64,000 nt of DNA from Alphaproteobacteria bacterium UBA3635 (GTDB lineage: Bacteria; Pseudomonadota; Alphaproteobacteria; Rs-D84), in NCBI GenBank assembly GCA_002373935.1, contig DFKW01000004.1, positions 27,704 through 91,703 of the forward strand. The letters are read 5' to 3'. Of this stretch, positions 40,175-45,701 are shown piece by piece (positions within the stretch are counted from its first letter, which is position 1; each line of letters starts with the position of its first letter). A model generated the notes under the pieces. That model was given only the letters and a program-made list of their open reading frames with translations. It made no database searches and was not told the DNA's origin. The position numbers and the translations under genes are program-made.

Positions 40175-40891
40175 ATGAAAAAAATATCACTGTGGTATGT
40201 TGGTATAATTGCGATTGGGTTATTGTTTGTGGGATTTTTCCCGGGGTATTATTATTATAAATCTAAATTTAATTACAATGCCGTAACGGTCAAGGGCCTG
40301 GCTGAACAAGATGTCGAGGCAAATTTGGCAATTTGGGAAATTAAATTTGTCGCCACAGATAATGATTTAATGCGGGCAAAAAACGATTTGGAAAAACAAA
40401 CCGATGCAATCATTACTTTCTTGCACGATAATAATTTCAGCGATAACGAAATTGAAATGGGTGGCACCGATACAAACGATTTAATGGCAAATCCATATCG
40501 TGGAAATGAAGATATCAAATCGCGCTTTATTTTGACACGCACATTGACGGTGCGTTCGGCCCAGGTGCACAATGTCGCGGAAACATATACAAAAACCGGC
40601 GATTTAATAAGCGCGGGCGTTGTGTTTGAAAATCGGTACGATTCACCGGTGTCGTATATATTTACGAATTTAAATGAAATCAAACCGCAAATGTTGGAAA
40701 CGGCGACGAAAAATGCGCGCCAGGCGGCATTGGAATTTGCAAAATCATCAGACAGCCGCGTTGGCAAAATACATTCTGCAAACCAAGGTGTGTTTTCAAT
40801 TTTACCACGCGATAACGCCAACGCCCCCGAGGCACAACAGATAAATAAAAAGGTTCGTGTTGTTGCAACGGTTGAATATTTCTTGGAATAA
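40175..40891 (+). CDS. SIMPL-domain periplasmic protein (BP26/Omp28-like)
   Basis: N-terminal TM/signal segment. VTVKGLAEQDVEANLAIWEIKFVATDNDL...LTRTLTVRS matches the SIMPL (DUF541) pattern. Confidence 0.65.
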   Translation: MKKISLWYVGIIAIGLLFVGFFPGYYYYKSKFNYNAVTVKGLAEQDVEANLAIWEIKFVATDNDLMRAKNDLEKQTDAIITFLHDNNFSDNEIEMGGTDTNDLMANPYRGNEDIKSRFILTRTLTVRSAQVHNVAETYTKTGDLISAGVVFENRYDSPVSYIFTNLNEIKPQMLETATKNARQAALEFAKSSDSRVGKIHSANQGVFSILPRDNANAPEAQQINKKVRVVATVEYFLE

Positions 40892-40919
40892 AAAAAACGG
40901 CGAAAGCCGTTTTTTTATT
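40890..40919 (+). terminator. Intrinsic terminator
   Basis: aaaaaaaacggcgaaagccgttttttt. Confidence 0.7.
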
Positions 40920-40920
40920 C

Positions 40921-40944
40921 CAAAGTTCAAAGTTCAGAGTTCAC
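40921..40944. repeat. AGTTCAAAGTTCA-family dispersed repeat, copy 1
   Basis: caaagttcaaagttcagagttcac. A partial copy (gagttcagttg) lies at about 40975. Confidence 0.7.
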
Positions 40945-41195
40945 CCCGTCGCCCGTTAGGCTATGGGGCGCAGGCAGAGTTCAGTTGTTGTAACATTTAT
41001 TTCGTTCTCGGATATTCCCCGTCTTTTCTGTCGCAACGGAGCGCAAGCGCAGACAGACAAAAAGAAGGGGTGGCACGAAACCGCAACGCGGTTGAGTGAC
41101 GGGGCAGTTAATATTATTTTCACAAATACTACATCCAATGATAAATTAAAACTAGACAACGCAAAATTTTTTTCTATAATCAAAATACCTTTGTT

Positions 41196-41272
41196 GGATG
41201 TTTAGCTCAGTTGGCTAGAGCATCTGCTTTACACGCAGAGGGTCAGGGGTTCGAGTCCCTTAACATCCACCA
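41196..41272 (+). tRNA. tRNA-Val (TAC)
   Basis: GGATGTTTAGCTCAGTTGGCTAGAGCATCTGCTTTACACGCAGAGGGTCAGGGGTTCGAGTCCCTTAACATCCACCA. Anticodon loop TT-TAC-AC. Confidence 0.9.
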
Positions 41273-41291: not shown

Positions 41292-41323
41292 CCGCCCGGG
41301 TATCGCCTGGGCGGTTTTTTTTA
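41292..41323 (+). terminator. Intrinsic terminator after tRNA-Val
   Basis: ccgcccgggtatcgcctgggcgg plus a T8 tract. Confidence 0.75.
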
Positions 41324-41330
41324 CAGAGTG

Positions 41331-41357
41331 CAGTTTTCAGAGTTCAGAGTTCAGTTG
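41331..41357. repeat. AGTTCAAAGTTCA-family dispersed repeat, copy 2
   Basis: cagttttcagagttcagagttcagttg. Confidence 0.7.
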
Positions 41358-41371
41358 TGGCGTAATCAAAC

Positions 41372-41606
41372 AAAAACGCGGATGCGTTTTTGTCATCCTG
41401 AGCGGAGTGAGTCCAACTTGGCGGAACGCCAAAGCCGGACGAACGCAGTCGAAAGTGAGTCACCAATGGTGACGAACGCGGATCCAGGCATATTTGATGT
41501 CGGGCGTATACGCGCCAACAAATTTGTCTTTGCCAAACCTTAGATCCACGCGGTCTAACGACCGCTTTCGACTGGCGCTCAGGATGACAAAATGCTGGCG
41601 CATTTT
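41372..41606. repeat. About 200-bp multi-hairpin palindromic element with 13-bp terminal inverted repeats (MITE-like or structured ncRNA)
   Basis: TIR gtcatcctgagcg (41392-41404) pairs with cgctcaggatgac (41576-41588). Inner pairing cgcagtcgaaag with ctttcgactggcg. Internal hairpins gtcaccaatggtgac and ggcgtatacgcgcc. Flanking hairpins aaaaacgcggatgcgttttt and aaaatgctggcgcatttt. Confidence 0.5.
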
Positions 41607-43709: not shown

Positions 43710-45701
43710 ATGGCACAGAAATATTTAATTACATCGGCGTTGCCCTATGTGAACAATGTGTTACATATTGGGCATTTGATTGGATGTTTATTGCCAAGTG
43801 ATGTTTATGCGCGTTTCTGTCGCGCGTTGGGTCGCGATGTGTTATATATTGGTGGTTCTGATGAACATGGAACCCCGTCCGAGGTTGGTGCCCAAAAAGA
43901 AAATATGCCGGTCGAAGATTATGTCGAAAAATACCGCGCAAAACATCTGGACGCGGTGCGGGATTTTAATTTGTCTTTTGATTTATATGGTCGCACGCAT
44001 ACAAAATTGCACGAAAAATTAATTCATGAATTGTTTGAACGGTTGGACTCGATGGGTATGGTTTATGAAAAATCGTCAATGCAGCCGTATTCAATAAATG
44101 AAAAAAAATTCTTGGCGGACCGGTATGTTATTGGGACTTGCCCGCGGTGCGGATATGATGGCGCGTATGGGAACGAGTGCGATAAATGTGGCGCGTCACT
44201 GGACCCGGATCAATTGATAAATCCGCACAGTGCCGTTGACCCGTCGTCCCCGGTTGAAATGCGTGAAACAAAGCATTTGTATTTTAGATTAAGTGCCATG
44301 CAGGATAAATTACGCGCATGGATAAATTCACGCCAGGGGTGGCCAAAAACCGCAATCGCAATCGCAAATAAATGGTTGGACGAAGGACTGCGCGATAATC
44401 CAATTACTCGTGATTTGAAATGGGGAATTCCGGTTAATAAACCCGGTTTCGAAGACAAAGTTTTCTATGTTTGGTTTGATGCGCCGTGGGGTTATGTTTC
44501 AATTTCCCAGGCGGCAACGGACAATTGGGCCGATTGGTGGAAAAACCCGGATTGTAAATATGTGGAATTTATGGGCAAAGATAATGTATCTTTCCATTCT
44601 GTATTTTTCCCGGCCCAAGAATTGGCAATGGATGATGGATGGAAAACCGTCGATGTGTTAAAAGCGTTCAATTTTATGAATTTTAATGGTGAAAAAATTT
44701 CTAAATCACGCGGCAACGGTATATTTTTAGACAATGCGTTATCAATCGCGCCAAGTGATTGCTGGCGGTATGCGTTGCTGGCATCGGCACCGGAAACAGA
44801 CGATACCGATTTCACCGTGCAAAAATTTGCAGAAATCGTGAATAAAGATTTGAACGGTATGTTGGGGAACTTTGTTTCACGCGTTTGCAAACTGACCGAG
44901 AAAAATTTTGGATTGGTGGTCCCAAATCAAAGTTCAAAGTTCAAAGTTCAAAGTTCAGTTATAGCAGATAAAATAAACAAAAAATTAAACGATTTAACCA
45001 CTGCATTGGATCAATGCGAATTTCGTGCGGCGATTTTTGCGCTGCGTTCGCTGTATGCGATTGGTAATGAATATATGACGGAAACGGCACCTTGGGCATT
45101 GGTCAAAGACGGTAAAATGGACGATGCCGGTTCTGTGTTGAATAACTGTTTTCAAATGATTGATTTATTTGCACGCGTGTCGGCACCGTTTATGCCAACT
45201 ACCGCCGCAAAGATGCAAAATATTTTTGGCGCGACGCATGATTTGTCGTGGCCGACATGTTTTGAACACAGAATCGCAAACGGTGAAAAATTTGCCGTGC
45301 CGGAAAATCTGTTCGAAAGAATTGACGATGCGCGTGTCGCAGAAATCAACGAAAAATATTCGGCAAAGCCAAAAACAGCCGCCCCGGTTGTCGCAAAAAT
45401 TTTGGATATTAAATCACATCCCCGGCGCGATGATTTACACATTTTGACGGTGGACAGTGGCAACGACAAATTACAAATCGTTTGTGGTGCGCCAAATGTG
45501 CGCGTGGGGATGGTTGGGGTTTTGGCACCGGTTGGGTGCGTTTTACCGGGCATGACAAAACCATTGGCGGCGCGTAATGTCGGCGGGGTAAAATCCAATG
45601 GCATGATGTGCAGTGCGCAAGAATTAGGTGTTGGGGGGGATGCCACAAAAATTATTGAATTGGATGATACATATAAAATTGGTTCGGAATATAAAGGATA
45701 A
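43710..45701 (+). CDS. metG: Methionyl-tRNA synthetase with C-terminal tRNA-binding (EMAP/Trbp111-like) domain
   Basis: HIGH as NVLHIGHLIG, zinc knuckle CPRCGY..CDKCG, KMSKS as KISKSRGN, C-terminal tRNA-binding domain. Confidence 0.9.
   Translation: MAQKYLITSALPYVNNVLHIGHLIGCLLPSDVYARFCRALGRDVLYIGGSDEHGTPSEVGAQKENMPVEDYVEKYRAKHLDAVRDFNLSFDLYGRTHTKLHEKLIHELFERLDSMGMVYEKSSMQPYSINEKKFLADRYVIGTCPRCGYDGAYGNECDKCGASLDPDQLINPHSAVDPSSPVEMRETKHLYFRLSAMQDKLRAWINSRQGWPKTAIAIANKWLDEGLRDNPITRDLKWGIPVNKPGFEDKVFYVWFDAPWGYVSISQAATDNWADWWKNPDCKYVEFMGKDNVSFHSVFFPAQELAMDDGWKTVDVLKAFNFMNFNGEKISKSRGNGIFLDNALSIAPSDCWRYALLASAPETDDTDFTVQKFAEIVNKDLNGMLGNFVSRVCKLTEKNFGLVVPNQSSKFKVQSSVIADKINKKLNDLTTALDQCEFRAAIFALRSLYAIGNEYMTETAPWALVKDGKMDDAGSVLNNCFQMIDLFARVSAPFMPTTAAKMQNIFGATHDLSWPTCFEHRIANGEKFAVPENLFERIDDARVAEINEKYSAKPKTAAPVVAKILDIKSHPRRDDLHILTVDSGNDKLQIVCGAPNVRVGMVGVLAPVGCVLPGMTKPLAARNVGGVKSNGMMCSAQELGVGGDATKIIELDDTYKIGSEYKG
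44927..44959. repeat. AGTTCAAAGTTCA repeat (4 tandem units) inserted in frame within metG
   Basis: caaagttcaaagttcaaagttcaaagttcagtt encodes ..NQSSKFKVQSSVIADK.. in the anticodon-binding region. The reading frame is preserved. Confidence 0.75.

Follow-up and report, generated by a model that had tools for sequence, protein, structure and literature searches.

How does a tandem repeat with a unit of 7 bp come to stand inside a gene that needs its reading frame? Dispersed heptanucleotide repeats have been known since 1990, and the spread of a single unit to many loci is unexplained. The question is raised by a 64,000-nucleotide stretch of DNA from Alphaproteobacteria bacterium UBA3635 (contig DFKW01000004.1, positions 27,704 to 91,703; the whole stretch is referred to here as the window), in which metG, the gene for methionyl-tRNA synthetase (MetRS), contains a perfect heptanucleotide tandem array that is read in frame. 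We consider it probable that the array belongs to a dispersed heptanucleotide family of simple sequence repeats (SSRs), (CARAGTT)n, of the class described as short tandemly repeated repetitive sequences (STRRs) or long simple sequence repeats (LSSRs), and that it was copied into metG as an in-frame replacement allele, which is near neutral and has spread by recombination.

An in-frame heptamer array segregates in metG

The metG gene (43710-45701, forward strand) encodes a protein of 663 amino acids which, according to its translation and Pfam matches (tRNA-synt_1g at residues 5-392, E = 8e-140; Anticodon_3 at 412-553; tRNA_bind at 560-659), is a MetRS of the archaeal/eukaryote-like type with a C-terminal tRNA-binding domain. 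The nearest solved structures are those of human cytosolic (5gl7/5goy) and Pyrococcus abyssi (1rqg) MetRS. Tandem Repeats Finder places the array at 44927-44957 on the forward strand (TCAAAGT × 4.4, equivalent to the CAAAGTT register; period 7, 100% matches, score 62), where it is the top-scoring short-period array of the whole window, and its in-frame reading is N406-QSSKFKVQSS-V417 (N-Q-S-S-K-F-K-V-Q-S-S-V, residues 406-417). A preliminary description of this DNA had reported an in-frame repeat in metG at 44927-44959, and both the quoted sequence and the identity of the gene were borne out by the repeat and Pfam analyses. The same description had pointed to a dispersed 13-mer, AGTTCAAAGTTCA. 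This string is indeed dispersed, with 9 occurrences in the window at no more than 1 mismatch compared with 0.04 expected (0 of 100 shuffles reach 9), but it amounts to two 7-bp units minus one base, the repeat unit proper being CARAGTT (equivalently AGTTCAR) in direct, head-to-tail arrangement. The forward strand (AGT TCA AAG TTC AAA GTT CAA) holds zero stop codons in all frames and encodes a permutation of SSKFKVQ in any of them (SSEFRVQ for the G variant), so that any in-frame forward copy is translatable, whereas the reverse strand has TGA in each frame, so that only forward copies can persist within genes.

An ortholog search returned 120 close MetRS sequences with 70-100% identity, several of them labelled "MAG: Alphaproteobacteria bacterium" (MAG, metagenome-assembled genome), and the sample names indicate an origin from rumen and gut metagenomes. 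The enzyme core of these orthologs has almost no other internal indels. Among the 120 sequences, P0001-3, P0010, P0025, P0026, P0044, P0049, and P0054 carry an array at exactly the same position, and the array-bearing alleles are scattered across the MetRS tree. In the family as a whole, 19 of 252 MetRS have the block, and the remaining 233 have a conserved loop that is 4 residues shorter. The array-less loop pattern, VP-xxxxx-D-[TSK]-DL, persists throughout the family, even in the most distant members at 70% identity, and the array-less state is therefore ancestral. A scan of the Joint Genome Institute (JGI) metagenome collection for the metG-type junction CCAAAHCAAAGTTCAAAGTTCA gave only 2 unrelated matches, the clade being seemingly absent from that collection.

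At least four clusters of at least 90% protein identity hold both alleles. For instance, both NQSPKFKVQSSDLEAK and KSNGMDADLENK occur in the P0026 cluster and both NQSSKFKVQSSVVADK and AAGKTDTDLADK in the P0049 cluster, whereas the P0004 cluster comprises 11 array-less members and one array-bearing member; in the P0089 cluster, two members read EIQS[SA]EFRVQSS. The share of array-bearing members in three of the clusters is 1/12, 2/8, and 3/6. In no fewer than four species-level clusters, the block and the ancestral loop coexist as segregating in-frame indel alleles. Equivalent peptides are therefore present in orthologs, 19 sequences in all, but each of them is encoded by heptamers and stands beside array-less alleles of the same clusters, which shows that the insertion allele is shared or recurrent and that the peptide is not ancestral. 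The block measures 11 codons in the 17 type 1 and type 2 alleles and 12 codons in two L128-type alleles (P0216 and P0222) and in P0054. Neither unit-number variants nor intermediate alleles were found among the 252 MetRS, the length being constant within each junction class. At least three junction types can be told apart, as seen in the window allele and L123, in L122, L124, and L209, in L126, and in L128.

Replacement of the resident loop

The repeat had at first been described as an insertion into metG. The array-bearing loop is 4 residues longer than that of 233 of the 252 MetRS, as an insertion would predict, but the insertion is not a clean one: 19-31 resident nt were replaced, for a net gain of 12 nt. 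In the window, the whole replaced block comprises codons 406-418 (44925-44963, forward strand; NQSSKFKVQSSVI), which codon alignments set against 9 codons in array-less alleles (e.g., AAGKTDTDL), a difference of 4 amino acids. Counted between the conserved VP and DL, 7 codons give way to 11 (12 in L128) that consist entirely of array sequence. The replacement is two codons longer in the window clade than in the other array-bearing lineages. The incoming sequence is an array of 31 nt, which the end motif brings to 43 nt in the window clade; array-less alleles have 19-31 nt in its place.

The exchange can be followed at the DNA level in 2 within-species pairs. Between L124 and L131, which are 97.3% identical, ATCAAATGGTATGGATGCC (19 nt) is exchanged for CCAAAGTCCAAAGTTCAAAGTTCAAAGTTCA (31 nt), and between L123 and L130, which are 96.2% identical, 31 nt are exchanged for 43 nt. 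In both pairs, the differences are almost confined to the block, with flanks identical up to the junction, and no target-site duplication was found at the block in either of them. Some array-less alleles have unit-like strings at the site (CCAAAATCAAATGG...TTCAGAT in L125 and L131, GTTCAATTTGA in L127). The array-less sequence of the L130 type, CCGGCGGCCGGAAAAACC, has no proto-unit, though the same species carries the block.

The peptide had been assigned to the anticodon-binding region of the enzyme; more precisely, it falls where the catalytic Pfam model meets the anticodon-binding one, in the loop that follows helix 1 of the anticodon domain. This loop, which connects helices 1 and 2, gains 4 residues through the replacement. 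N387 and R391 in the preceding helix align with N391 and R395 of the Escherichia coli enzyme, which we take to be anticodon-recognition residues. In the AlphaFold2 (AF2) model of the array-less P0007, a helix (370-400) is followed by a loop (401-411) and a second helix (412-430), with predicted local distance difference test (pLDDT) values of 91-95, whereas in the model of the window MetRS the loop spans 401-408 and the helix 409-434, and pLDDT drops to 71 at 411-420. Helix 2 is thus modelled, at low confidence, with an N-terminal extension of two turns formed by the block. The loop is of similar length in Pyrococcus and human MetRS, and the charge of the peptide is not conserved, with KFK in some alleles and EFR in others. 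The minority frequency within species, the non-conserved charge, the low model confidence, and the natural range of loop length in other MetRS together suggest near-neutrality. The block is probably near neutral for MetRS function and not adaptive, the surface loop being tolerant of it.

Origin and spread of the block

Although metG third-codon positions are only 50-60% identical between the lineages compared, identity between their arrays is 87-100%. Where 2 lineages encode the same amino acid within the array, 7-10 of 7-10 codons are identical, compared with a fraction of 0.55-0.68 gene-wide (P 0.005-0.02 per pair); that is, the array has zero synonymous differences between lineages in which other synonymous sites are near saturation. 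The 10-20 codons beside the array are no more alike between lineages than metG is elsewhere. Recent transfer of a long patch between species was rejected as the source of the array identity in the window allele, L122, and L124, because their flanks are no closer than the gene average, and is supported only for L126 and L123. Within the closely related type 1 alleles, variation falls only at the polymorphic R position (A/G) of the family, where P0122 and P0131 have E and R in place of K, and the type 2 allele P0025 has the same G variants at this position. The metG array of L128 is a mix of AGTGCAG and AGTTCAG, likewise present in the intergenic arrays of L128, and the end motif AGTTCAGTTGT is common to the window-clade metG block and to intergenic arrays at 41347, at 40979, and in L123. 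Judged by sequence comparison, the L128 unit mix and the common end motif point to exchange between arrays, as concerted evolution or as copying.

Homologous recombination appears to move the allele as well. The metG gene of L126 is 100% identical to that of L127 for 350 codons and then 44-78% identical over approximately 95 codons that hold the array; the donor of this divergent patch had no match among the sampled lineages. L123 has an L121-like metG with a patch resembling the window allele. In the clade generally, metG genes are mosaics that switch between segments with 100% identity and others with 44-80%, which points to frequent recombination between related species that also carries the allele between genomes, unless the contigs are chimeric assemblies. 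The genomes with the array-less metG allele carry the heptamer family too, and the family is hence older than the metG allele.

We propose that the block was copied from another array of the family and did not grow in place. Ectopic gene conversion or template switching may have done the copying, with short matches such as CCAAA... and ...TTCAGAT as anchors, and further ectopic conversion would keep the metG array like the family consensus. Homologous recombination of metG segments would then have spread the allele among related gut and rumen alphaproteobacteria, where it could persist through the tolerance of the surface loop. Several points weigh against this account. We infer the copying step, no donor array or intermediate having been observed. 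One old event followed by recombination could have given several lineages a block with the same position, frame, and length, but several independent events could equally have done so, and the existence of at least three junction types does not decide between a single origin and multiple origins. Selection acting on the DNA or RNA sequence itself is another possible cause of the lack of synonymous change. The evidence for mosaics is drawn from metagenome assemblies, and some of the contigs could be chimeric. Finally, the genome-wide copy number is an extrapolation from about 280 kb of clade DNA (the window, 64 kb, plus about 220 kb of flanking sequence from relatives), in which the density is roughly one array per 15-20 kb.

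The identical flanks and the synonymous identity could also be read as the work of an active, sequence-guided process that deposits AGTTCAR blocks of approximately 30 nt in many phyla, by templated repair or insertion or as a very small mobile unit, and that struck the same MetRS loop independently in several species. We regard this as doubtful; if it were true, the exchange of 19 nt for 31 nt between identical flanks would be its footprint, and the synonymous identity would signify recent repeated deposition, not conservation. Replication slippage in place, in which a resident proto-unit (e.g., TCAAATG or GTTCAAT) expanded to four units and compensating changes restored the frame, can appeal to the unit-like strings in the array-less L125, L131, and L127, to the stepwise unit numbers in the fabG-mnmG spacer (see below), and to the general standing of slippage as the accepted driver of SSR length change, to which, according to Mrazek 2007 as cited in PMC4679880, heptamers were proposed to be especially prone. 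Such growth is unlikely at metG, since a net gain of 12 nt does not correspond to a whole number of 7-nt units, each single-unit step would be a frameshift in a gene presumed essential, and no intermediates were seen among the 252 sequences. Moreover, the L130-type ancestor lacks a proto-unit in a species that nonetheless has the block, and the end motif of the block is shared with other arrays. With no intermediates, the +12 nt replacement favours copying between arrays over simple slippage. Selection for a functional element, either a binding or processing site in the DNA or mRNA or a peptide that tunes tRNA binding by MetRS, would account for the absence of synonymous change and for the same position and length in several species, and would fit the occurrence of the heptamer in many phyla, its roughly 4-fold excess over composition-matched controls in viral contigs, and the regulatory roles proposed for other heptamer families (PMC4679880, PMC4692102). 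It is nevertheless quite unlikely: the allele is a minority one, dispensable within species and missing from most relatives, the charge of its peptide flips, no RNA structure is present at the metG site, AF2 confidence drops in the block, and intergenic arrays of the same family are degenerate (72-93% matches).

The preliminary description had likened the repeat to the short mobile palindromes of Rickettsia, the Rickettsia palindromic elements (RPEs). Transposition into metG of a discrete short mobile repeat of this or a similar kind, such as a miniature inverted-repeat transposable element (MITE), with tolerance in frame, would agree with the dispersed copies in the same genome, with in-frame copies in housekeeping genes here and elsewhere (metG, MnmE, and LeuRS-like and Map-like open reading frames [ORFs]), with the recurring end motifs AGTTCAGTTGT and AGTTCAAATAATG, with the presence/absence alleles between identical flanks, and with the arrays that form inverted pairs around a hairpin. 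We find it very unlikely, however, because the metG copy consists of nothing but direct repeat over its 31 nt and lacks inverted termini, and its region (44890-44995) folds no better than chance (z −0.78; 40 of 200 shuffles fold equally well). In addition, resident sequence is replaced and not interrupted, no target-site duplication accompanies it, RPEs are about 150 bp long with a conserved peptide (PMC10969869), and an orthologous spacer varies in copy number unit by unit, as expected for an SSR; no transposase turned up nearby, although no systematic search was made. As all data are metagenome-assembled, and mosaics are also expected from chimeric assembly, an assembly or sequencing artefact in a low-complexity stretch was considered too. 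It is extremely improbable, given that the identical protein occurs on 3 contigs from NCBI and ENA and that the block recurs in more than 15 independent assemblies made in different studies, never out of frame and of one length within a junction class.

The metG locus offers matched filled and empty alleles within species, in a gene that needs its frame, and the origin of heptamer families becomes testable; this filled/empty pair for studying the spread of such families is its chief value. Conserved essential enzymes (MetRS, LeuRS, and MnmE) can gain residues from heptamer repeats, which are thereby a small but real source of protein-length variation. Heptamer blocks within genes also call for caution in annotation and in alignment-based phylogenetics.

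The heptamer family in the window, in other phyla, and among known repeats

The window holds 5 period-7 arrays of the family at 4 loci, 4 of the arrays being intergenic. Besides the metG copy, Tandem Repeats Finder detects CAAAGTT × 3.3 at 40921-40943 (forward strand), directly after a terminator-like hairpin with a T-run (inverted repeat 40882-40925); CAGAGTT × 4.4 at 41324-41354 (forward strand), directly after the tRNA-Val terminator at 41292-41314; and, in the fabG-mnmG spacer, a degenerate array × 4.6 at 50484-50515 (forward strand), which forms the left arm of an inverted pair. The right arm of this pair, TTGAACT × 3.7 at 50547-50572 (reverse strand), was also recovered by an inverted-repeat search and lies beyond a GC-rich hairpin, GTGTGGCAAAGCCACAC, at 50523-50539. 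Copies at 40921, 41331, and 50484 had been listed from the outset, and all three proved to be period-7 arrays, whereas the inverted array at 50547-50572 had been missed. The tRNA-Val gene (anticodon TAC; 41196-41272) is flanked by the first 2 arrays, and terminator-like hairpins adjoin all four intergenic arrays, namely that of the gene ending near 40890, the tRNA-Val terminator, and, on both sides, the GC hairpin of the spacer. The inverted pair at 50484-50572, which is the sole inverted-repeat arrangement among the compared window arrays, the metG copy being direct, forms one long hairpin with an RNA fold of −30.2 kcal/mol (z −6.0).

Copy number at the fabG-mnmG spacer differs between relatives: orthologous spacers have no unit in L122 and L128, one in L125, three in L121, and 4.5 in L123, and those of the window and L130 have the array-hairpin-inverted-array arrangement. 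This unit-number variation is SSR-type behaviour. Between the spacer of the window (50516-50546) and that of L130 (16745-16780), the flanking arrays are conserved and the hairpin between them is completely different (GTGTGGCAAAGCCACAC versus GTCCGCCGACGGCGGAC). Further heptamer arrays occur in syntenic loci of relatives.

An Rfam search of 38-52 kb returned tRNA-Val only, with no RNA family covering the arrays, and a promoter and terminator scan found nothing specific at the metG array, where it gave one weak promoter-like match (9/12) at 44947-44974. Comparison by eye with known alphaproteobacterial motifs showed that the 7-nt spacing fits none of the LexA GTTC-N7-GTTC box, CtrA, CcrM GANTC, and IHF sites. 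The unit (GTTCAAA/GTTCAGA) is similar to the tRNA T-loop sequence, and no support was found for any link between them, including one to tRNA-Val. Just 3' of the tRNA-Val-associated array, a perfect 17-nt inverted repeat (TTTTGTCATCCTGAGCG at 41388-41404 and CGCTCAGGATGACAAAA at 41576-41592) encloses 171 nt; it has a MITE-like look and is present as a single copy in the window. Its core, GTCATCCTGAGCG, recurs at the unrelated loci L051 and L074, in the latter adjoining a heptamer array.

Outside the clade, a scan of one genome per species for AGTTCARAGTTCARAGTTCA found at least 120 loci, compared with about 4 expected in random sequence by our own calculation. Among the matches listed are loci from Acidobacteriota (especially Pyrinomonadaceae), Bacteroidota, Verrucomicrobiota, Planctomycetota, Cyanobacteria, Desulfobacterota, Patescibacteria, Chloroflexota, and several Alphaproteobacteria MAGs. 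The matches listed hold 218 period-7 arrays versus at most 18 of any other period, an excess that is partly due to ascertainment, although approximately 100 of the arrays have other units. An array size mode of 4-5 units in the other phyla is largely ascertainment by the 20-nt search pattern and was not used as evidence. An in-frame repeat in an aminoacyl-tRNA synthetase had been singled out as notable; the array is in frame in MetRS, but in-frame heptamer arrays are not rare, 37 of 136 arrays among the matches listed lying within long open frames. These include LeuRS-like ORFs (L003 and L055), MnmE (L102), and a methionine-aminopeptidase-like (Map-like) ORF (L096). The MnmE array (L102, 6655-6682) is read as QSSEFKVQSS and stands between the G-domain motifs ...HVIDGG and NNEIIVINKSDL; the contig is labelled Bacteroides fragilis, and its 46% GC and gene content suggest that it is misbinned.

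In viral contigs, (AGTTCAA)3 was found at 43 loci versus 11, 9, and 12 for three control heptamers of equal base composition; AGTTCAA is thus a favoured heptamer, by about 4-fold, and not a unique one. In other phyla (L007, L042, L080, L094, L099, L109, and others), AGTTCAR arrays often adjoin arrays of related units, among them GGTTCAA, AGCTCAA, AGTTCGG, GGACTCC, and the 8-mer CCAACTCT, many with an AGT/ACT core, and it looks as if units mutate and then re-expand. One Acidobacteriota contig (L028, 2316-2641) has four AGTTCAA arrays at a spacing of approximately 100-105 nt, suggesting a larger tandem unit that contains the array.

The AGTTCAR family is a new example of the known class of dispersed heptanucleotide repeats and not a mobile palindrome of the Rickettsia type. 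The searched literature yielded no mention of the AGTTCAR heptamer in bacteria, and the STRR units, which we take to be CCCCAGT, TTGGTCA, and CAACAGT, differ from it. Dispersed heptamer families have been described in Calothrix and Nostoc (STRR), in Xanthomonas, and in marine Beggiatoaceae, cyanobacteria, and Bacteroidetes (PMC4679880, PMC4692102), and heptanucleotide repeats are, according to Mrazek 2007 as quoted in these two papers, the most abundant long SSR class in many bacterial genomes. Like the STRRs of heterocystous cyanobacteria and the "long simple sequence repeats" of Mrazek, the family consists of head-to-tail 7-nt units at many dispersed, mostly intergenic loci, with unit number and sequence varying at orthologous sites, and the origin of these repeats is likewise unexplained, slippage having been proposed (PMC4692102, PMC4679880). 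It differs from them in that its host is an uncultured gut and rumen alphaproteobacterial clade, that one of its copies, read in frame within an essential gene, is present in some members of a species and absent from others, and that this metG copy, unlike STRR and LSSR copies at orthologous loci, has a constant length within each junction class. The GGGAATC repeats of Xanthomonas and the GGGGAYT repeats of Nostoc (Rehm et al. 2015, PMC4692102) number about 180 dispersed arrays per genome, mostly of about 4 units, and resemble the AGTTCAR family in having some stem-loop-capable inverted pairs and in occupying the same intergenic sites in related species with varying length and sequence. Their units, however, are G-rich and G-quadruplex-capable, which AGTTCAR is not, and their arrays were reported from intergenic DNA, the description including no in-frame allele of a housekeeping gene (PMC4692102).

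The closest parallels in coding properties are with the TAACTGA repeats of marine Beggiatoaceae, cyanobacteria, and Bacteroidetes (MacGregor 2015, PMC4679880), a family likewise shared by distant phyla and usually found as 2-6 units, in which one strand has stops in all frames and the other is open, and the few copies within ORFs have a single orientation. TAACTGA arrays are concentrated immediately upstream of start codons, and those within ORFs mostly encode the ends of the protein (PMC4679880), whereas the metG block is internal, lies in a conserved domain, and is dimorphic within species. As for the RPEs of Rickettsia (PMC10969869), they too are dispersed repeats tolerated as in-frame additions to unrelated housekeeping proteins of an alphaproteobacterial host, but they are palindromic, MITE-like elements with a conserved peptide module, compared with a 31-nt direct repeat that replaces codons; the analogy is valid for the outcome, an in-frame addition to a housekeeping protein, and not for the element. 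With the SSRs of contingency loci the metG array shares a unit that is not a multiple of 3 and a position inside an ORF, where one-unit slippage would shift the frame. Unlike them, it is in an essential housekeeping gene and has no unit-number variation within a junction class, and it is therefore not a phase-variation switch. In comparison with repeats of the repetitive extragenic palindrome (REP) or bacterial interspersed mosaic element (BIME) type, the unit is not a palindrome, and inverted array pairs around a hairpin do exist (50484-50572 in the window; an inverted partner for 32 of 147 arrays among the matches listed).

At the start of the window, positions 1-319 form a 123-bp tandem repeat (2.5 copies, 81% matches), which continues past the window start and probably lies in a repetitive coding region.

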